A stretch of 64,000 nucleotides of DNA from Octopus vulgaris. Its lineage: Eukaryota. Both the position numbers and the translations under genes were made by a program. The notes under the pieces were generated by a model, which searched no databases, was not told the DNA's origin, and saw only the letters and a program-made list of their open reading frames with translations. Shown here piece by piece: positions 43,077 to 56,603 of the stretch. The DNA is taken from NCBI GenBank assembly GCA_951406725.2, contig OX597825.1, positions 54,002,001 to 54,066,000 of the forward strand. The letters are read 5' to 3'. Positions within the stretch are counted from its first letter, which is position 1; each line of letters begins with the position of its first letter.

Positions 43077-43784
43077 CGTGCGTGCATGTGTGTGTGTGTG
43101 TGTATGTTTGTGTGTGTGTAATCTGTTTGTTCCTTCGCCTGCTAGAAATTAGTTATGGAGGTGGACTGAGTGACAAGTAGAGTAAGAGAGAGGGAGGAGT
43201 GAAGAAAGAAGAGATGAAGAAAGAAGAGATGAAGAAGAAGAGAAAGGTGGTTAATAGTAATCTACATAGGCCAAATGTTGCCAGCTAATGGGAAAAGTAG
43301 GGATGGACATGGGCGGTAGTTATACTGAGAAAGAGAGAGAATGAGAGAGCTGAGGAGATAGCAGTAATGGAGATGTGTTGATAATGAAAAATACTACTTT
43401 AATTGAACTAATTTGTTTTTTGCAATTATTTATCGTCTGCTCGCTAAAAAATTGATATTTGTTTATAAGAGTTACTTTAGCCTAAACTCCGGATTCATAA
43501 GGAACACGGTTGCAAGCTGCCTGAGAAAGGATGCGCAGATATAGTGCACGGATCAGAGATGAACAGCGAGAAAATATAATATTCATTACATCACGTCACC
43601 GACAGACACCCGAGGAATGGAATGTAGATGAACTTTAAAACTATTTAATGAAAGCTAAACCATGAATGACTTTAAAATGCAAATCATCCTTTAAGATGCT
43701 CTTAATTTTTCCATTCAGTGGAATTTCTATTAGTCCCACTAATATATATATACATACATACAAGACTTACGGAATGGAGTATGT

Positions 43785-45548
43785 GAAATCCGGGATACAT
43801 ATGATTCATAGCTAGTGGAACCTCAGTAATGGAAAAATCCAAAATGAGGTGTATACCGCTGACTACCCTTCAGGCCGAGTATATCTTGATTAGATTAACG
43901 GTTACATAACCACAAGGAGGTAAATGTCGATGCAAAGCTTCAATCAAAGTGTGTAGAGGACACAGTATGTAAGGCATATATAAATGAGTGGAGAAATAAG
44001 TAATAGAAGGGAAGAAAGAAGAGAGAGAAAATAAATAAATAAATAAAATGAGATAGAATAATATATACGAGAGTGAGAGAAAAGAGGAATTGGACGGGTC
44101 GGTGGTAGATAATAAAGTAGTTTTAGCTTAATCACAGAATTCTATAATGCTATTGGCATTTAAAGAGAAAAGAAATTGGAGAGGAGAGGGTGGGGAAGTT
44201 GTTTTGATCGTGGAGGACAAAAGAAAGTATGTATGAATAAAGCAAGGTAGGGTGGGGAGTTTAAGTACGACTAGTTGTTTTATGGTCAAAGGCATAAATT
44301 GGTACAAAAAAAGGATACAAGCGAAGTGGTGAAGATGTCTCTAGCCGTATGTACTTGTATGTTTACGAATGGAGGGGGTAGGAGGGGAGGGAGTAAAAAT
44401 ATAAGAAGGGAAATATATTTTAGGTAGTAAGTAAAAATACGATTAAGGAATTAAAATGGGAGAAAAATATTGTTGGTTTAATACGCAGTGGTAGTGAGGG
44501 GTGGATGAGTGGAAAAAGAATATGGGAAGACAAAAGCGGGATGAGGTTGCAATCATTTGTATTTCGAGAATAGATTTAGTACTCGATGTTTGCAGGTGAA
44601 AATTACACTGCTACGTTCATTGGATTGCAAAATTGCCATGACCTCGGCTATGCAGGAATCGAAATTATTATTAGGTCCTCTGTAAAATTTAGCGTGGGTG
44701 ATTGTGGACCATTTAAGAGTGTAAATAGTTGAGTCAAGTTAGTTTATTGATTAGTTGAGATAATGGATGTACCGTTTGATTTTTAAAGGATTTTAAGCGA
44801 GAGTAGTGATTGCTCACACTAGCTTTGAAGGTAGAGCTACATGAGCCGATGTAAATGTAGTTTCAGTTCTTAGTTGATACTGTGCACTTATAAACTATGT
44901 TTTTCATGAGACAGCGGTTATCTAAAGGATAGAAGTTTGGATGTCTGAAACTGCATAGGTGAGTGTGGGGGTGTTCACCATAAAACCACTAACCGTACCT
45001 AAATTCCCCACCCTACCTTGCTTTATTTAGACATACTTTCTTTTGTCCCCCCACGGCCAAAACTATTTCCCCACCCTCTCCAATTTCTTTTCTCTTAAAA
45101 TGTCAATCGCACTATTAAATTCTGTGAATAAGCTTAAACTATTTTATTATGTACAACTGACCCGTCCATTTCCGCCTTTCTCTCACACTCCTATATTTTA
45201 TTTTATTTATTTATTTTTCTCTTCCTTCTTCCCTTCTATTACTTAATTTCCGCTCAATTATATGCCCTCACATAGTGTGCCCACCACATATTATGATTGA
45301 AACTTTGCATCAACATGTACCTCCTGGCGACAATGTAAACATTAATCTAATCAAGATATCCTCAGCCTTAATAGTAGACAGTGGTGTACACCTCATTTGG
45401 ATTTTATTACTTCTAAGGTCCCATTCGCTATGAAACATATGTATCGCGGATTTCCTATGGTTGCCTGGTTGCCTACCGAGGAACATATAAAGAACTTTGT
45501 TTCAGCTCATCGATAAAAGGAAAAATCCGCAACCTTCCGTCTCAATAA
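43785..45548 (-). mobile_element. Truncated Penelope-like element: inverted ~490-bp terminal repeats flanking a GIY-YIG endonuclease remnant
   Basis: Arms ~43785-44286 and ~44977-45456 are diverged reverse complements. The right arm runs on to AATAAA at ~45544. The spacer encodes the endonuclease. Confidence 0.88.
44552..44955 (-). pseudogene. GIY-YIG endonuclease remnant (Penelope/Neptune-like), absent from the ORF track
   Basis: Manual translation CSFRHPNFYPLDNRCLMKNIVYKCTVSTKN*NYIYIGSCSSTFKASVSNHYS...(frameshift)LKWSTITHAKFY...DSCIAEVMAIL...FTCKHR. Confidence 0.85.
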
Positions 45549-45671
45549 ACGAATATTGTTCCTGAAAAATGTTTATTTATATTCACTACGGATTGCTCAA
45601 AGCTAACTTTCTTCCTGCAGCTAGATCCCTGGATCTTACATTTATTACATTTATACATAATATATTTATTC

Positions 45672-45760
<89 letters not shown>

Positions 45761-45772
45761 GTATACATGTAT

Positions 45773-46150
45773 AGGCGCAGGAATGGCTTTGTAGTAAGAT
45801 GCTTGCTTTCCAACCACATGGTTCCGGGTTCAGCCCCACTTTATGCCCCCTTGGGCAAGTGTTTCCTTCTATAGCCAGGCGCCGACCATAGCTTGTGAGT
45901 GGATTTAGTAGACGGAAACTGAAAGAAGCCCGTCGTATATTTGTGTATGTGCCTGTATTTGTCCTCCCACCGTCGCTTGACAATCAATGTTGATGTGTTT
46001 ACGTCACCGTAAATTAGCGGTTGGGCAAAAGAGATCGATAGAATAAGTATCAGGCTTCCAAAGAATAAGTCCTGGGGTCGATTTGTTCGAATAAAGGTGG
46101 TTCTCCAGCATGGTAGCAGCCAAATGACTAAAACAGCTAAAAAATAAAAG
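45773..46150 (+). mobile_element. Full-length tRNA-derived SINE
   Basis: Head aggcgcaggaatggctttgtagtaag, B-box-like gggttcagcccc, core ccttgggcaagtgt, A-rich tail. Partial copies at 6.1, 7.6 and 17.8 kb. Confidence 0.88.
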
Positions 46151-46399
46151 AATATATACATATGCACTTGTGCATTTTCATGTCTTACGCAGCAGTCACT
46201 GAACGAGAAATTAATTCAGTACATGGCCTATATAAACCACGGTAATAGAGATATGAACTAATTTTAGTTGCAGTATTCACAAGGCAAAACGAGACTTAAT
46301 ATACAACATTAAAAATATAATCTGGTTTAATAGGGAAATCTATTATATTGTTTAGATCAGATTTTCTTAACACGGGGTGAGGGGGTGATCGCTGGGGCG

Positions 46400-47311
46400 T
46401 GGATTTTGGGGTTTTCTCGGAGTGTCACGGAGGGTTTGGGAGAAAGCAATCTATTTCATACATTTGAGGTATAGCACGGCAGCACTGAAATATAAAATTC
46501 AACTTTACCAGAAAAGGGTTCAGTACGGTGACACAACATTCTTTCCTCTTACTGCTTCTCTTCCCCTTCATCTGGAGCTTCCTCATTACGCTTCTCTTGC
46601 TGTTCCGTTGATTCACCCATTTTTTTTTGGGGGGGGGGGGCTTGTCCTTCAGGTTAAAGGGTCTGGGGCACTTTATCCTTATGTGACCCTTCAGTCCGCA
46701 CTCGAAATATCTCATTAATCTCAGAGCGCACCATGCCAATCCTCACTCTTACCACTCCTTTCCTGAGATATGTTGGCTGGATCGTCCATTTTTCTGTCTT
46801 CAATGCCACAGTGGAGCACATAACTGCCCCCTCCTCAGTAGGGAAGCGTATCACCACTTCACCAAACCTTCCTCCTCTGCAGCAAAATTCAATATCACTC
46901 CTTACATCCTCCAAGCCATCTCCACCTCCGGATTGTCTGTAACAGGGCTCTATAAAACACCATTTTCTCTCTCTTACTCCGTTATATCTTTGAGTGGAGT
47001 CATTTCTAATCTTGCCCCCTCTCTTTGAATTAATACCTGGCTGCCTCTCACCATTTCAAAGTCGACAGACACTTCCTTGACTTCCATTTGTCTCACAGCA
47101 GCTGTTATATTCTCTCGGCCTGCCACTGAAGTGCAGCTTCCGATACACTTTTGCAGCTCTTCCACTTCTCACTGCGACTTTCGCTCCCATTGGGATTTAA
47201 CAACTCCAACAAAGTTTTAATAATTGCAACCCCGCTAGTGAGGACTTTAAACAAAGGACAACCTATCCGCAACGACAACAATTCAACACTGAGCGATTCA
47301 ATGCTTTTCAA
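46400..47311 (-). pseudogene. Degenerate gag/ORF1-like zinc-knuckle coding remnant, copy A
   Basis: ORFs 46654-46914 (VALKTEKWTIQPTYLRKGVVRVRIGMVRSEINE) and 46425-46739 (YFECGLKGHIRIKCP, a CX2CX4HX4C knuckle with the first C changed to Y). Paralogous to 48190-48570. Confidence 0.65.
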
Positions 47312-48189
47312 GGTCGCGTTGCTTCTTTAATGGGTACAGAGGCCCGAACACAGAGGGGACGGTACAAAGACAGACAGAATGATACAAGTGGGGACAAAAA
47401 ACATGAAGCGAATGAATGAAAATGGATTTATATAATGGATGGCGGTGTAATGGCTTCTCGAACCCCTACTATCGAGTAGTACCATTTTAACTATATTTTC
47501 CTCTTTTTTATACCAAGGTTTATCAAATTAATTCATCTTAATATAAAAAATATGGTTTCAATTGTTCAGTTTCTATCACAGGTGGTAGACAATCGTATCT
47601 TATCTCTCGTCCTAGTGCGTTCACGTCATCGCCAAACCTTGCTTTTAATTTTTTTTTTGTAATTCTTTAAGTCTATCACTATACTATCCATACCTGGTAC
47701 GGGTAAATCATAGTCCTGTACAATTTTTATAACCGTCTATATTTTTAAAAATTTTATTCTCAATGGCCTTGCTCCTCCAATAGCTAGTTAAATACGCCCA
47801 ATGTTTATAACTGGCCTGTAATCCTTGTGTGTCTGTTTGGTGTGTGTTTGTGTGTCTGCATGAGTGTCTGCATGTGTGTCTGCATGTGTGTCTCCTTGTG
47901 TATATTTGACTGGAATTTCTGGGCTGTCTGTGTGTTCTTGAGTATACTTGTCTGGAGATTCTGTGCTGTCAGGTGTTTTCTTCTATTTTTGTTGTAATGG
48001 GATATAGTATGTGGGTGCTTGTATATTACTTACTTCAATTTTTTTTAGTTCTTTGGGTATGAGTAGATTTTAATGTCCTTCCTCTTTCTGTTTTGTACTT
48101 CCTGGAATCATTCTTCTCTGCTTTCTACATTTGCTTTTTAGTATTTTCTTTTAATTTCTCGTCTCTGTAATTTTCTTCTTGTATCTCCC

Positions 48190-48570
48190 CTATTGGCTGT
48201 TAAGAAGGGGATAAAGTGCCTTTATGTTTCCCTTCTTTCTGAAGTGGTAGGAGATGAGAGGTCTTCCCTCTACCACCATACACAGCTTCAGCTCGTCTGG
48301 TAGCTCTTTCTCTTCGGTAATTCCCTGTAAGTCCAGAGGAGTGGCATGAATTATAACTTCCAGGCCGTATCCCCAGCACTTCAATTGTTTGGTGCGGCTT
48401 ACCTGCAGCACCACAGGGTCCTCCTTTTTATCTCTTAAGATTGCTGCAAGCAGCCACACCTCATTAATCTCAGGTTGCTCTCTGCCAATGCTCACTCTTG
48501 CTACTCATTTCCCGAGATATGTTGGAAGGAGTGCCCATTTTTCTGTTTTCAGTGTTACAGTCTTGGCATA
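48190..48570 (-). pseudogene. Degenerate gag/ORF1-like remnant, copy B
   Basis: TVTLKTEKWALLPTYLGK*VARVSIGREQPEINEVWLLAAIL...VVEGRPLISYHFRKKGNIKALYP aligns with copy A; knuckle decayed. Confidence 0.65.
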
Positions 48571-49532
48571 TTAGTTTAAATTCTGTGGATTTCATCGGTA
48601 AGTGACTATTCCCTGTAACTGTTTACGAAAATATTGTCTATAAAAACTATCACTGTTATATTTATGTAAATTGGATAGATTAATTTGTAAATGTAATATC
48701 ATGTCGGTGGCTAGCTACAGTATGAATTTATCATTGCATTAAAACTTTTGTATTAATGCTACATTGTGATATGAAGGATATCTATATATAATTTAGATAA
48801 CATCGTGAGTAATAGACTGGTGTAAATATTTCGTTTTTAATATAAAATAGCTTATATGTAAGTCGCTATTTAAAACTGTAATAGCTTAAATACTCAACTA
48901 TTTCAGCTTTATCTTGTTTCCAGTCCGATACTCTTGCATCTCAAACCTATCTGGCATACAAATGTGGATCTATTTATACGACATCATATTTTGGCAAAGA
49001 CAACGACCACAAAGATACATTCAATACATTGAGCCAATGAATGCCAATATATGAGAGTAAAGTAATGGAAAAGAGTATGTAAAACATGTTTAAAATAAGT
49101 AGTTATTGACTTTGGCCCATAAAAGTTATTGCTTTTATTTTCAAAGATATGATTATTTCAAATACAATCCAGTGTTTGTAAATATTTGTGCGTTGGTTAC
49201 ATGTTTCAAAGAGTTAATAACATTTCTGCGAAGTATGGTTGAGGGATAAAATGTTACTTTGGCAGAACCAATATCACCTACGACATTCATTTAAAACCAA
49301 CGGCTTAAGCGTTTTTCTCATAGTTGCTTAAAACTTCCGCTGTTATTGGTGAAATACATATAGAGCCATACAGACACACACACCATGCACACACTCACGT
49401 TTATGTATACATACATACATACATACATACATACATACATACATACATACATACATACATACATACATACATGCATGCATACATACATACATACTTACAT
49501 ACATATATATATATACATACATAGGTACGTAT

Positions 49533-50700
49533 ATAAAGGTCATCCCGTAAGTTCAGTCTGAATTTTTAATAAAGAAAACAAGTGATCAAATTTTATACTT
49601 AATTGAAATTTTATCATCAATGTACTTTCCCTGATTATCTATGACTTCCTTCCATCTATTTACAAGCTTTTTAATCCCATCAGTGTAAAACTCTTTTGGT
49701 TTCAAAGCGAAGAACTCTGGATTATCATTTTCGACCTTCTCCTTGCTTGCGAAAGTTATGTCCCCCAAATGATTCTGTAAACTGCGTAACAAATGGTAGT
49801 CTGAAGGAGCTAGGTCGGGAGAATAAGGTAGACGAGGAATTTTATCCCAACCAAAATCTTCAATCTTCTGTGATTGATCTTTGCAGTGTGGGGTCGCGCA
49901 TTGTCTTGATGAAACATCACTCCTTTTCGATTCACTAAAGCGTGTCTTCTTTTCTTCAAAGCTTGGTTCAAACGCTCTAATTGCTGACAGTAGAATTAAG
50001 CATTGATTTTGCATTAGGTGGCAACAATTCAAAGTGAATTACTCCTTTGCAATCGCACCAGATAGAGAGAAGAGCCCTTTTTCCATGAAGTTCCCTTCTC
50101 GGTTGTGGTTGAGCTTTTTCGTTTTTACCAAGAACACTGTTTACGACGTTTAACATTTCGATAGAAGATGCATTTTTCGTCACCAGTCACAAGTCTATCC
50201 AAAAAGAGTGAAATGAGTTCGCAATAATGAAGAGAAGAGCAGATATCAACTCGGTATTTGCGATTGCTTTCGGACAATTCATGAGGCACTCATTTTCCAT
50301 GTTTAGGAACCTTTCCAAGTTGTTGAAGATGAGGATGAACAATTGTATGGTTTAAACTAAGCTTTATTGTCAATTCTTCAACTGATAATGCAGGATTTTC
50401 TTCAAATAATGCCTCAAGCAGCTGATCATCAAACTCAACCTGACATCCTGTTCGATTTTCATCTACAAGCCTAAAATCTCCACTTCTGAATTTTGCAAAC
50501 CCTCTTCTGCAAGTTCTTTCATTCAAGCATTCTTTCTCATAAATTGAGAGTATGTTTCAGGTTGCTTCGGCTGCAGAATTTCCATTTTTGTACTCATAAA
50601 GCATTTCGTGCCTTAAATGCTGTTTGGGTACTTCCATATAAGAAAGGGTGTTAATCAAAGTAATTATGTATAATATTTATATTCTGTATAATATTTAATT
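49533..50700 (-). mobile_element. Degenerate mariner transposon, near-complete transposase pseudogene
   Basis: ORFs 50290-50526 (FAKFRSGDFRLVDENRTG), LVTGDEK near 50180, 49977-50183 (LLSIWCDCKGVIHFELL), 49586-50032 (PYSPDLAPSDYHLLRSLQNHL, FYTDGIKKLVNRWKEVIDNQGKY). A matching 5' TIR was not found. Confidence 0.92.
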
Positions 50701-50771
50701 AGCTTGAATATCACAAATACATAAACATAGTTTCTAGTGAGCAAACATGTTTGTGTGTGTAAAGATATTTA

Positions 50772-51140
50772 TACATTGGGGCTACCGAAATGTAATCTCA
50801 CATTTCGTTTAATAGGTATTCAAGTAAGGATAAGATACAACGTAAATATATTTATTTATTTATACAATATATATTTCAATTGCTATTTTTAACACTTTCT
50901 AACCTAACCTCGAAACCAGTTTTGTAATACTTCGTACAAAAAGAAATCAGTTTCTGTAGAAAAGAAAATGTTTCGTGTGCCATTTCAATATCGTCCAACT
51001 CAACTTTTTTGGTACTGATAAAATGTTCAAATGACCTGAATAATTGAAAATAGCATGGTGAGAATAATAGGTAAAGTTGAGCTTCCTATGCTAATGAATT
51101 TCTCATTCTAAGGCTTATTTTTGCTGAACGTGATTCTATT
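50772..51140 (-). mobile_element. Older mariner 3' fragment
   Basis: Minus-strand pieces PYYS...FQLFRSFEHFISTKKVELDDIEMA...VKNSN*NIY parallel the C-terminus of the adjacent mariner. Confidence 0.5.
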
Positions 51141-51329
51141 CTCGGGGAGCAGCTCATGAGTCACACATGTCGCTCTCCTGTACATATTCCCAATGTTGTT
51201 AATAGGATATGGCACAGAGAACAAATATTTTATTAAACCACCAAGATAAGTACTCATAAATTCTGACGTGCATTTTGTGTGTGACCTCAGACTATCTCCT
51301 TGAGAATACGACGTCTTTCCAGTATCTTA

Positions 51330-51387
<58 letters not shown>

Positions 51388-51755
51388 CACTCGTATATAT
51401 GTATGTATACATATATTACGAGTGCTCATTTAGGTTTACCACTAGAAGTCCACCTAAATCAAATGTCCTTTTCAAGTGATGACAAACGTTATGCTTTCTC
51501 ATTTTTACTTTAATCTATAACTACCTACTGAAGGAAAAACCATTTCTAACCGCCTCTGATAGGCAGTCTCAGCACCACACTGACAGATGCAGTTTAACCT
51601 GGAGTTTTAGTGGTAAACCTGAACACTCCTAGTACATATCTGTTACTTTGTGTCAGTTAACGAAAACTCCTCGTATATTAATTATGTATGTATGTATGAA
51701 AATATATGCGTGTGTGCGTGAGTGTGAGTGTCTGTGAGTATACATATACATATAC

Positions 51756-51817
<62 letters not shown>

Positions 51818-51821
51818 GTAT

Positions 51822-52153
51822 TAGGTAGGTAGGTACATAGGTAGGAAGGTAGGTAGGTAGGTAGGTAGGTAGGTAGGTAGGTAGGTAGGTAGGTAGGTAG
51901 GTTGGTAGGTAGGTAGGTAGGTAGGTAGGTAGCTAGGTAGGTAGGTAGGTAGGTAGGTAGGTAGGTAGGTAGGTAGGTAGGTAGGTAGGTAAGTAGGTAG
52001 GTAGATAGGTAGGTAGGTAGGTAGGTAGGTAGGTAGGTAGGTAGGTAGGTAGGTAGGTAGGTAGGTAGCTAGCTAGCTAGCTAGCTAGGTAGGTAGGTAG
52101 GTAGGTAGGTAGGTAGGTAGGTAGGTAGGTAGGCAGGCAGGCAGGTAGGTAGG
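51822..52153. repeat. (GGTA)n tetranucleotide array with GCTA/GGCA variants
   Basis: Read directly. Confidence 0.95.
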
Positions 52154-53279
52154 CATATTAAACTACTAGATATATTTAGATTAAAAATTCGTTTTCACTG
52201 GAACTAAACCCGTGTGTAAAAAAATTATTTCTGGGTACATAATGATAGAATATAAAAGATGGAAAGCTTCATCGCATAGATTATAAGCGCTACTTAGTGA
52301 GCGCCAGCTAATAAAATGTGCAAGAAATGTGTTCGGTCCTATTCTTTTGAATGAATATTTCTGCCTGCAGAAATGAAACTTTGAAGTAGGGTTTTCTAAA
52401 GGCATTTTATTGGAACCTTAAGCATTGATAATTGATGAGACCTGAGATGTATTCAGATTGTAATCATAAAGGAAAGTGTACGCAACCGGAAGTAAATTAT
52501 CTTATAGATTTTAGTTACTGCAGTATGTAGAGAGAAAGATATAGAGAGAGGGGAAAGAGAGGAAGAGAGAGAGGGTGAAAGAGAAAAAGAGAGAGTGGGA
52601 AAAGAGAAAGAGAGATAGAGATGGAGAAAATATTAGTATATAGTAAAGAGAGAGAAGCAGAGAATGTTTCTGGCGGTAAGGGAGATCGAATAAATAAAAC
52701 AACAAATCGCAAGGGCATCATTTATGGCGGAAACAAAATATTTTATTAAAAAATATCGGCAATTAAACCTTTGATCTTTTTCCAAATTCTTGTCTCTTGA
52801 AACTGTTATGTATGAGCTAATTTTATTTGTTGTTTTTTTTCTTAAGAGGTGTCTAAGACACTTAATATTAATCTATCGGGAGAACAGTAGAGACTTTGCA
52901 GTAATGGTACCGTTAATAATGAATGTATTGATATTAGCTGTCATATAAACTATATTGATAATAATCATCTTGCTACTCTAATTGCTAATGTTTGTCAAAC
53001 TAAATCATGGCCTGAGACAGTCTAGATAATAGACAACCGCAGCAATTACCAAATTATGTTTATTTTATGTGTAACTCGATTCCGTGTTCTATATTCAGTA
53101 GAGGAATTCTTGCTGTTCAATGCCCCGGGGTCATTCAAATAAATACCTATAGTAGACAGTAATACTTAAGAAAATTATATTTCTGAAATATCAAAGTTTC
53201 TAATGTTTTGTTGTTGTTGTTGTTGTGGTGGTGGTGGTGGTGATTAGTGGGGATAGTAGTTGGGGTAGTTGTGTTCCAC

Positions 53280-53481
53280 CACAAGTCAGTTCCTCTGTGC
53301 CCATACAACGTTGTTGAACATCAAGTACGTCATCATCCAGATTCGTTTTTCTACCGAAAGTGTGTTCACGATGGTTTGACTGATTTTCTCGCTTATCAAA
53401 CAAATTAGTAGGAAACGAGTTGCGGATGGAACTCTGACCAAGGCAAAATTTCACAAGTAGGCAATGTCTTTTAAATCTCAT
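53280..53481 (-). pseudogene. Mariner transposase N-terminal (HTH) remnant
   Basis: MRFKRHCLLVKFCLGQS...GRKTNLDDDVL...TEEL resembles the N-terminus of the 49.5-50.7 kb mariner. Confidence 0.5.
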
Positions 53482-54844
53482 ATATCAAAAAGCGGTATAT
53501 ATCAGACAAAATATTGCTGTTTTTGTGGGTTTGTCTTGCGACATTATTAATACCTCGGAATATGTTAGACACTCTCGTGCATTTAGAAGTTCATTTGCTC
53601 TTTGTTCTGTTGAAGATTTTAAATCAACAAAGTAGATAAAGTTAACACATTCTACAATGATTTGTAATAATAAAAGAGAAATTGTTAATAATCAATATTG
53701 TAAATTACATAAAACTAACACTTCCTGCAATTTAGGTTGTGGAATAGACGCATAATTAGCTTTATAGATGTAAATGGAAAATGAGTATGTCGTATTTGGG
53801 TAAATTTAGTTACTGGTATTTTGTTAGAGGTCAAATATACAATATGTGACTTCGATTTAATATACAAAATTGTAGTGCTATAGTTACGGAAGACATGAAT
53901 AGATAGGCGGAATGTTAGTGTCTAAAGAACTGCTTGATTCACTGGAACAGGTTTTAGTACCCCAAAAATTAATGTGCACATTTTCGATGATTGAAATTAA
54001 TGTAGTAATAAAATGCTTTGTCACTCTTAAAAGTAAGGGATTACTCAATAGAGAACAGAAAATTATAGATAACGATTCTCTATGAGTAAAAGGAGAACGT
54101 ATTTACATCATCGAGGGATTTTCTGGCTAAGAAAAGTACACCTGATGAGGAATTCTGTAAGAGTTAATGTGAAAGGAAACACTTCACTAATTTAAAGACA
54201 TTTGCGTTATGTAATTGGAGAACCAAAATTGGTTATGTGATAAGAATTGGATATGTCGATATTACTTGCTAATTTGATAATCTGCATTCGATATAGCAAT
54301 GACCGACTCAACTTAACCCCATTGCTTTTTGTGAATATCAGGAATTTTGGAACAATAACCTAATCGTAATTGTTCGCTACTTAAATGAGAAACATTGTCT
54401 TGTAACAATTTTCAAAGCTAACATAAAAATAACGAAAGACAAATGAAAATTATTATACAGTGTTTCAAAGTTATGCATCGACTTCTCAGGAAGGAATTTC
54501 GAGTCACTAAAAATATTTGTTCAAACTACACATATGCTAAAAGTTATTTGATGTGATGCCAAATAATGCTTCCGATGTCTTGGAACTCGTGTTCTTCATT
54601 TATTTCAAATTGGATCCAACATTCACATTCAAGTTTAGTAGAATATCTAAAGAATATTTATTTTGTAGAGGGCATTAAATCGTTCGGACAGATAGAGGAT
54701 AAAAAGGCGGACAAGAGAAACAAGAATTACAAGGACAGGCAAAAAAAGACGGGTCATTCTTGGCTTATATACAAACCTATATATTCATGAGTGTGTCTGT
54801 ATAAATAAAAATATGCAGTGTATATATAAGTATATATATATGCA

Positions 54845-54900
<56 letters not shown>

Positions 54901-54904
54901 TATA

Positions 54905-55375
54905 TAAGAGTTAAGGAATGGAATAGATTATATCAGGGCTATATATATATATGATAGCGACCGGAATGTCGGAAGTGGTAAATATCTAGGCGAGGTGTAT
55001 ACCGCAGGTTAATCTTCAGGCCAAGGGTATTGTATATATTCTCCAGTTCTCCACACTAACCTTGCTCTCTACACGCTCTCATCGAATCACCTGTGTGTTG
55101 ACATATATCTCCTTACGACAACGTAAACTTCATTTCATCAACATACCCTTGGCCTGAAGTAGCCTTCGGATACACCTCATTTTGATATTTACCACTTCCG
55201 AGATTCCTCTCGCAATGAAACATACGTAGTTCAGATATTATCTACACCATTCCTTAACTTTTATATTTTATTAGCATACCTGGCAACCCTGCCTGCCTAC
55301 TGTGAAATATAAAACCTTTTTCAGCTAACCATTCTTCGATACAGAAGAAATTCACAACCGTCCGTATCAATAAAT
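54905..55375. mobile_element. Short fold-back derivative of the 43.8-45.5 kb Penelope-like family
   Basis: Arms ~54905-55031 / ~55143-55265. Shares ggcctgaag...tacacctc...gaaacata(t/c)gta and the tail tgcctac...tataaa...tttcagct...caacc...tccgt.tcaataaa with 45360-45548. Confidence 0.8.
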
Positions 55376-55449
55376 CATTATGTTCTACGGCTTGCTATAA
55401 GCTGACCTTCTTCCTACACTTCGATTCTTGGCTCATACATGTGTACACG

Positions 55450-55521
<72 letters not shown>

Positions 55522-55589
55522 ATATCAAATCTATAATTGGTAGAACCTATCATTTTAGTAGAACCCCCTGTACGGATAAGTACTGTACT

Positions 55590-55929
55590 GTATGTAGATT
55601 TAGCCCACAAACAAACTGTAGCCAGAAATGTAGTCTACGTAGTCTATAGTATAAGATGTATAGAGGGACGATGCAGTAACAAGACAACGACATACGTAGG
55701 GGAAACGGCAAGAAGCATAGGAGAGCTATGTCCACATTGGAGACAACTCAAGGAAGGTAAAAGCTCATCGATTCTGTACCAACACGCCGAACAGGAACAC
55801 GGGGGATCAATCAATAACATAAAAATTAAAATATTGTCCACACATAGAACAGATTCAACAATTAGACAAATTACAGAAGCTACACACATAATAGAAAATA
55901 AATCTAGCCTGAATAGAAAACTAGAATAG
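55590..55929 (+). pseudogene. GIY-YIG endonuclease C-terminal domain of a Penelope-like element
   Basis: [12 protein letters not shown]...YVGETARSIGE...H...SSILYQHAEQEH...KILSTH...RQITEATHI...LNRKLE. Confidence 0.88.
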
Positions 55930-56021
55930 AGCACTAGCACACACCACAACATAAGACGATAGAGGATCCCGAAAACATAATAAATACACATATAAATAAA
56001 CAAATAGAAATAAATAACTAT

Positions 56022-56054
<33 letters not shown>

Positions 56055-56376
56055 TTTCGATTCGATTTATTATTATTATTACTAGTAATGTTGTTTATAC
56101 ATACATACATACAAGCATATGTAATGATAATAATAAGTGGATATAAACACATGAACAAAATAAGAATAAACAAAAAACAACAAAAACAAAATGCAAATTA
56201 CATGAACATATATAAACGGAAGATACAAATATTACAGGCATCCCTCCACATACACACACTAAATAAACATAGACGCACATAGAGATATAAGCATGCGCAA
56301 ATGAAGACATACAGTAGAAATACAAAATGGCTGACAGTTAGTAAGGAGAGACACAACTAAGAAGGAAAAAAACAAA

Positions 56377-56421
56377 GGACCACTGATGCGGTCACAGGGG
56401 TGTGACGAAAGAACTCTGGCC
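56377..56421 (+). ncRNA. Minimal type-I hammerhead ribozyme-like motif in a putative Penelope terminal repeat
   Basis: GGACCA-CTGATGC-G-GTCACA-gggg-TGTGAC-GAAA-G-aa-CTC-TGGCC. Stems I, II and a 2-bp III can all form; non-canonical C at core position 9. Lies ~450 bp downstream of the GIY-YIG stop, same strand. Confidence 0.65.
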
Positions 56422-56566
56422 GAAATAAGATTAAGATTAATGTAAAAAATAAATAACACTGAAGCAAAATAACACCAAATATATAGTGCGTGTGTTTTTA
56501 TTGGCTAAACTGGCAATATGACCGTTCCGAAATATAACAATATATATATATATATATATATATATG

Positions 56567-56603
<37 letters not shown>

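Follow-up and report, generated by a model that had tools for sequence, protein, structure and literature searches.

The association of Penelope-like elements (PLEs) with hammerhead ribozymes is already known. The minimal hammerheads described by Cervera and de la Peña (2014; PMC4209133) are of type I, with a short helix I, a palindromic helix III and predicted dimers, and PLE hammerheads are reported to require dimers (PMC4209133, PMC6765202). They mostly occur as dispersed single copies of truncated PLEs, with opposite-strand pairs 100–700 bp apart, and the helix II called "larger than usual" in that study has 7–8 bp (PMC4209133). For the Hydra clade, Craig et al. (2021; PMC8557442) describe the motifs RWK and DKT, a CxCx5C linker, CxxC/CxH in the endonuclease (EN), (TA)n targets, an inverted 5′-truncated copy, a one-sided tail, and, close to the 3′ end, a type I hammerhead whose short stem III is nearly palindromic. 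The helix II domains in the 26 Hydra rows of their File S2 measure ~10–24 nt. In vitro, uncut RNA is described as the main insertion template (PMC11167929). The octopus elements analyzed here share these features of the minimal and the Hydra hammerheads but differ in helix II, which consists of ~11 bp, an asymmetric loop, a 5–6 bp helix and an 18–19-nt loop.

The window, a stretch of 64,000 nt from Octopus vulgaris, contains four homologous arms, arranged as two inverted pairs rather than as a tandem array. Their coordinates and lesions, as described in an earlier note made by eye, all matched on re-examination. Insertion 1 (43761..45643) is a 5′-truncated Hydra-clade PLE with TA-rich repeats on its flanks. 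Its main body lies on the minus strand and its 3′ end is copied inverted on the plus strand, forming an inverted repeat of 80% identity (43785–44289 and 44974–45454). Read along the minus strand, a broken, C-terminal GIY-YIG endonuclease with a Hydra Cys linker (44556..44955) is followed by a 3′ untranslated region (43877..44555), contiguous with both the endonuclease and the hammerhead in L012 and L025, and by arm1 (43793–43876). This arm is a decayed type I hammerhead with the lesions A9>G and A15.1>U; its cut is predicted between positions 43796 and 43795, and its short 3′ end lies at 43761. Arm2 (45364–45446, plus strand) is the decayed hammerhead of the inverted copy, with G5>U, G8>U, an intact GAAAC and a predicted cut site after 45443. 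A tail of ~200 nt extends from it (45447..45643, plus strand), equals the start of the 5′ UTR and terminates in (TA)n.

Insertion 2 (54905..55447) is a pair of inverted 3′ ends, very short and lying within (TA)n, with the tail on the plus arm. Arm3 (54937–55022, minus strand) has an intact 5′ core, and its GAAAC and stem III are now (AT)n; the equivalent of the cut site follows 54940. Arm4 (55151–55231, plus strand) shows a 2-nt loss in the 5′ core, an intact GAAAC and a predicted cut site after 55228.

The mean column identity of the four arms is 78% over 157 alignment columns. Arms 1 and 2 were assigned to one subfamily (A) and arms 3 and 4 to another (B), each arm differing from its own subfamily majority at 11–15 aligned positions. 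The by-eye consensus had therefore mixed two masters. The hammerhead core is broken in all four arms, none of which gave a hammerhead when folded singly, and a whole-window Rfam scan yielded no hammerhead among the 150 matches listed of 273, which were microsatellite noise. Contigs from other DNA runs showed 3 differences in 189 nt to the arm1 region and 3 in 417 nt to the arm2 region, so that most of the damage in these two arms is not assembly error. The copies in the window are most likely dead.

Genome-wide, a strict pattern of the intact core gave 107 exact matches and its reversed control none, which places the repeat far above chance. All 11 scored core positions were intact in 21 of 48 copies found by BLAST. 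The majorities of four subfamilies (A–D) keep these 11 positions with not a single difference among them, whereas the free position N7 varies (A in A–C, C in D). All four majorities carry CUGANGA and GAAAC with an NUH triplet, here GUA, and a helix II domain of 58–59 nt; the consensus type I hammerhead with a stem II domain of ~58 nt, proposed from the window, was thus recovered throughout. Pair 10.1–11.1 is G-U instead of G-C. Most 3′ ends enter TA or related microsatellites, as expected for (TA)n insertion. Neighboring arm pairs were inverted in 30 of 32 cases and direct in two, and the inverted pairs cannot dimerize within one transcript because their arms lie on opposite strands. Three copies at C2:194.0 Mb were rejected as a tandem array and represent a 2.9-kb segmental duplication. 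The Rfam model Hammerhead_1 (RF00163) is alike in core and three-helix topology, but none of eight long copies matched it at E ≤ 10, whereas a short motif from the same genome, serving as positive control, did (E 7e-6). The prediction that standard motif searches would miss the long form was borne out for Rfam.

Judged by their sequences, the arms belong to a Hydra-clade PLE with a C-terminal GIY-YIG domain. At 11 of the 29 other EN loci the hammerhead lies downstream of the EN. The linked ORF has the Hydra motifs RWK, DKT, CxCx5C linker, CxxC..E and N..CxH, which its homologs P0004–P0006 also carry. In one full-length copy (L461), residues 1–302, 492–551 and 567–707 of P0005 are matched in order, with the reverse transcriptase (RT) followed by a C-terminal GIY-YIG domain and then by the hammerhead, which is uncut. 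This copy spans ~4 kb, simple-repeat DNA included; the published Hydra definition is <3 kb. No Pfam family passed the threshold for the two GIY-YIG domains of the window or for the Hydra homologs. An identity as a Naiad PLE was rejected, since an N-terminal endonuclease would be expected and the EN is C-terminal here. The tie to a GIY-YIG PLE drawn in the earlier note therefore holds for the EN at 44556–44955 (minus strand), but the GIY-YIG domain at 55537–55926 (plus strand) belongs to an unrelated element. The latter is the 3′ part of a younger C-terminal-EN PLE (55523..56573, plus strand), has its own short hammerhead-like motif (56380–56419) and is not part of the hammerhead system.

The integrated 3′ ends are bimodal, lying ~35 or ~235 nt beyond the cut site, and all are uncut; because the copies extend past the site, the downstream hammerhead would have been uncut in the template RNA. 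In L396 and L394 the tail continues into the N-terminus of the ORF, which identifies it as the start of the 5′ UTR of the element; a reading as coding sequence, sense or antisense, was rejected (best E 0.46). It measures ~200 nt, compared with 30–40 bp reported for Hydra elements (PMC8557442). The Poseidon element PAc of Anolis, as described by Frangieh et al. (2024; PMC11167929), likewise has a tail 3′ of an uncut hammerhead that is part of the next tandem unit, but differs in its short helix II, an ORF start inside stem II and a demonstrated, protein-assisted activity. At the 5′ side, 8 of 47 junctions fell within −4..+2 of the cut site versus ~6.7 expected, in 52 regions chosen by eye among 165 listed matches. 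Individual copies (L412, L415, L461) begin at the predicted cut site.

In the subfamily majorities, folding of the helix II domain gave z-scores of −2.1 to −4.5, and the whole motif folded no better than shuffled sequences (z = −0.25 to −1.75). The basal helix II of subfamily A reached a probability of only about 0.4. Stem I has a 2×1 internal loop with no nearby loop 2, and by eye no conserved pseudoknot or alternative helix was found in the large loop of subfamilies A–D. The computed pairing probability of stem III in the monomer was 0.03–0.04, and none of three core-intact natural copies folded into a full hammerhead. For the dimer, the computed optimum in all four subfamilies contained stems I and II together with a palindromic stem III of 8 bp, and lay ~9 kcal/mol below two monomers. 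The computed folds thus display the short palindromic helix III, pairing between two motifs, of dimeric PLE hammerheads, but not the small helix II (≤ ~8 bp, short loop) of the minimal type. That the palindromic stem III permits dimer formation agrees with these folds; the inverted arms of the window, however, cannot supply the partner.

A looser pattern retrieved 1,039 long-helix-II motifs genome-wide (2 in the control) versus 163 short ones, and 114 in a middle-length bin that by eye were mostly deletion derivatives. Among 17 clusters of long motifs (average alignment score 42%), stems I and II vary in sequence yet stay paired, with 40 of 51 pairs in stem I versus 22.4 after permutation and 77 of 85 in stem II versus 42.3. 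None of 20,000 permutations was as high as observed (P < 5e-5), for clusters that share ancestry and are not independent. The core across these families is fixed by the search pattern itself and is no evidence of core conservation. One of the 17 clusters, L176, is a local duplication. Within the arms' own family, covariation is weak: of 29 scored pairs, a single one is replaced by a different pair through changes on both sides, each of CpG type, and among the 9 pairs on which the subfamilies disagree, 4 contain a mismatch in one subfamily or more. The covariation of the stems, named earlier as a test of the fold, was accordingly found across families and is weak in the family to which the arms belong. 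Chance matches of the same pattern in metagenomes paired in 10 of 120 cases, compared with 29 of 30 in the octopus genome; the metagenome matches behave like chance and are uninformative on other animals, and no EN relatives were found in the metagenome scans.

The domain keeps a length of ~53–65 nt across families with distant endonucleases (branch lengths 0.5–0.9 in a tree of unnamed homologs that is based on the EN and not on the RT, and holds no published Hydra elements). The same layout, an asymmetric loop between a basal and an apical helix, recurs across families; conserved sequence was not found in the apical part. Hydra families with a short helix II are likewise spread in the octopus genome, and the most abundant long family, E, showed no EN upstream in 18 copies. 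The long-stem-II variant suggested from the window is real, but it is common to many Hydra families of this genome instead of being confined to one. Among published entries (PMC8557442), Hydra-1_Obim has a helix II of 22 nt and a different motif. The spike-moss PLE-X1 hammerheads in Files S1–S2, flagged as non-canonical, have a helix II of ~48–53 nt, and eight Naiads, one from an octopus, are labeled "HHR_half_core" with core halves 35–50 nt apart; these belong to other PLE clades and are single consensus entries.

Taken together, we read the arms as the decayed 3′ termini of two Hydra-clade PLE insertions, and the once-active RNA probably self-cleaved after GUA as a dimer, which would have trimmed the 5′ ends of tandem read-through transcripts. 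Stem III is predicted to pair only between two hammerheads, and the cut would occur after GUA in a dimer of once-active elements. Cleavage at the upstream copy would release the unit RNA, and the downstream hammerhead would be left uncut in those RNAs that get reverse-transcribed. The motif could also be vestigial, with the look of a core but no cleavage, and be kept as part of a 3′ end recognized by the RT. The uncut state of every integrated 3′ end and the absence of a clear accumulation of 5′ ends there fit this reading, as do the reports that hammerhead mutants of another PLE left in vitro insertion unaffected (PMC11167929) and that Naiads spread without canonical hammerheads (PMC8557442). 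However, we count the fixed core of the four subfamilies, in which N7 is free, against it, and pairing is preserved across many families; we regard a vestigial motif as improbable. An origin of the arms from a non-autonomous retrozyme or from the GIY-YIG element at 55537 is barely credible: most copies are short and lack an ORF, and arm4 is 300 nt away from the ORF at 55537, but the motif is contiguous with the Hydra EN at the 11 loci mentioned above and with the whole ORF in L461, neighboring pairs are rarely direct, and none of 19 other copies of the 55537 element bears the long-helix-II family. The rarity of direct pairs and the link to an ORF likewise led us to reject an identity as animal non-LTR retrozyme, which consists of short non-coding head-to-tail repeats.

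For the long helix II, the preferred model of dimeric cleavage would see an extension that was inherited within a single Hydra sub-lineage and tolerated there. Tentatively, it might instead be a selected functional module, for instance a site bound by the element's protein or a folding switch by which cutting of the 3′ hammerhead is delayed until it is required. In an old Hydra sub-lineage, the 53–65-nt helix II could conceivably have become a selected control module, such as a dock for the element's own protein licensing the upstream cut and blocking the 3′ copy; the form would now be dominant for its stem III type in this genome and invisible to the standard model. The retained length despite far-apart endonucleases and low motif alignment score, the recurring layout and the excess of long over short motifs speak for selection, and one PLE hammerhead is reported to cleave only with its protein (PMC11167929). 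Nevertheless, the apical part lacks conserved sequence, short-helix-II families have spread too, and a single origin followed by length drift is compatible with the data.

To the known association of PLEs and hammerheads, our comparison of sequences adds a long helix II as the majority form among pattern matches of this stem III type in the genome, kept across deeply split families. Rfam overlooks this form, so the numbers of ribozymes counted in genomes of this kind probably fall short of the true ones, and where clades are reported to lack canonical hammerheads, as with the Naiad "half cores", a renewed search that allows long spacers is warranted. For the question of what role the hammerhead plays in PLEs, the families also provide a natural series, in which helix II can be shortened or swapped at a constant core.

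The four arms lie where the earlier note had placed them, at 43793-43876 (-), 45364-45446 (+), 54937-55022 (-) and 55151-55231 (+). They show a column identity of 78% when aligned, and the lesions claimed for each arm were all seen as described; the observation is real and its reading correct. The arms form two inverted pairs, 43785-44289 with 44974-45454 (80% identity; subfamily A) and 54902-55030 with 55143-55266 (79%; subfamily B), and one-sided tails are located at 45447-45643 and 55264-55447. The regions of the first two arms were recovered in contigs of other DNA runs, with three differences in each region.

Using the second arm as DNA query against the 2.8 Gb animal genome containing the window, we obtained 884 candidates and scored 40 of them. 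A strict pattern, which required the two halves of the core, the spacer and stem III, identified 107 genomic places compared to none in the reversed control. Of 163 profile matches in the fetched loci, 143 remained as unique sequences. Few gaps were present in 135, and flanks alone placed 126 in subfamilies A (41), B (42), C (24) and D (19), with copies diverging by 11-14% from their own subfamily majority. The core reconstructed by eye from the four arms reappeared genome-wide: each of the 11 core positions scored, and also GUA, is retained in all four majorities, and N7, a free position, carries A in subfamilies A-C and C in subfamily D. Stem I consists of 3 bp, a 2x1 loop and a further 4-6 bp; the helix II domain of 58-59 nt begins with ~11 bp (at most two mismatches), continues beyond a 5x1 loop with 5-6 bp, and is closed by a loop of 18-19 nt; stem III is a palindrome of 8 nt. 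The core pattern played no part in collecting a set of 48 copies; their non-CpG mismatch amounted to 0.066 for core, 0.075 for unpaired and 0.107 for paired positions, and the core was intact in 21. These values fit decay after insertion.

The proposed linkage to a GIY-YIG Penelope-like element (PLE) held for the endonuclease at 44556-44955 (-), ~680 nt upstream of the first arm. This endonuclease as query led to 29 other loci, 11 of which have the hammerhead downstream within the fetched flank, and reverse transcriptase fragments are located further upstream of it. The RWK, DKT, CxCx5C, CxxC and CxH motifs of the linked ORF agree with the Hydra clade definition in Craig et al. 2021 (PMC8557442), and likewise with homologues recovered by profile. 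At one locus (L396), hammerhead, 200-nt tail and ORF start follow in a row, hence the tail is the 5′ UTR of the next unit. Another (L461) is a whole copy, starting at the predicted cut site and ending 35 nt beyond an uncut hammerhead. Tails of PLEs have been described as 30-40 bp long; the one-sided tail here, at ~200 nt, is far longer and implies two priming sites ~200 nt apart.

The linkage did not hold for the GIY-YIG at 55537, which we rejected as the arms' element, with a long-helix-II motif in none of 19 other copies. It is part of a younger, abundant PLE with C-terminal endonuclease and a Cx4CxxC linker at 55523-56573 (+) (1,829 candidates, 93% identity between copies). One copy (L247) has an open frame of 616 aa. 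The short hammerhead-like motif of this element at 56380-56419 (+), for which Rfam gave no match, has a non-palindromic stem III loop, and C replaces core A9 in 16/16 matches from the other copies. Downstream of a further copy (L258), a relative of family E, another hammerhead family of this genome, is inserted as judged by eye; its long helix II differs, and it has an extra A after the core, so that the patterns used here would miss such motifs. A transposase-like remnant at 49589-50556 (-), without a Pfam match, is presumably of Mariner type judging by its motifs.

As the earlier note had anticipated, a standard search misses the long form: Rfam matched none of eight long-helix-II copies, and a short motif from the same genome was matched. 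In Craig et al. 2021 (PMC8557442), the 26 Hydra rows of File S2 have helix II domains of 10-24 nt, in contrast to 58-59 nt here; two spike-moss PLEs reach ~48-53 nt, and the core halves of eight Naiads are separated by 35-50 nt. Our literature search, within the text portions available, found no description of long-helix-II Hydra hammerheads.

A looser pattern with free stem sequence, run in three spacer classes with one control each, yielded 1,039 matches for 44-70 nt (an undercount, because motifs preceded by C are omitted), 114 for 25-43 nt and 163 for 6-24 nt versus two in every control; as all three demand one stem III type, hammerheads with another stem III are uncounted. By eye, the 25-43-nt class consists mostly of deletions of long families. 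Long motifs in the fetched loci formed 17 sequence clusters, across which the first three pairs of stem I were paired in 40/51 and stem II positions 2-6 in 77/85 cases, versus 22.4 and 42.3 with halves permuted between clusters. Neither value was reached in 20,000 permutations, a P that overstates independence, given that relatedness links the clusters and one of them represents a local duplication. The earlier note's covariation test was passed at the cross-family level only; inside A-D covariation is weak, since 9 of 29 pairs vary between subfamilies (five stay paired, four are broken in at least one) and the sole two-sided change is CpG-type.

Hydra-type endonucleases are tied to families F, G and H and more loosely to I. 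In an endonuclease tree of 18 short rows (11 long-helix, one short-helix, six outside homologues), a branch (89/86, not starred) separates all 11 long-helix rows from the others, and a single origin of long helix II would be allowed by this topology. Family E (L151-L178), the most frequent long-helix-II family among the matches listed, has two 3′ ends, ~43 and ~115 nt beyond the predicted cleavage position, and targets (TA)n. We found no ORF upstream of its motif in 18 copies inspected; it is possibly non-autonomous.

The helix II domain folds stably compared to shuffles (z -2.1 to -4.5), the entire motif does not (z -0.25 to -1.75). Stem III pairing probability in monomers is 0.03-0.04, and single natural copies folded alone, including three core-intact ones, did not form the full hammerhead. 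For all four majorities, the computed optimal dimer takes the double-hammerhead form. For published PLE hammerheads, required dimers and low activity (PMC4209133, PMC6765202) and protein assistance with uncut templates (PMC11167929) are reported. By analogy, in a tandem transcript the hammerhead lying upstream would cut after GUA with a second motif as partner, which would fix the 5′ end of the RNA. In 52 regions chosen by eye from 165 matches listed, 8 of 47 genomic 5′ junctions fell within -4..+2 of this predicted site, compared to ~6.7 expected. The 3′ ends of copies cluster ~35 and ~235 nt beyond this site, so the 3′ hammerhead would remain whole in copied RNAs. Neighbouring motif pairs are inverted in 30 of 32 cases and not possible dimer partners, because the two motifs lie on opposite strands. 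At L199 (G000:C1:85190565-85193623), two family H hammerheads, of which the second carries a deletion in helix II, lie 250 nt apart in direct orientation; this rare arrangement could permit a dimer within one transcript.

The pairing of ribozyme and retroelement was already known; the long-helix-II hammerhead is a new structural variant of it, in which the role of the long arm is putative.
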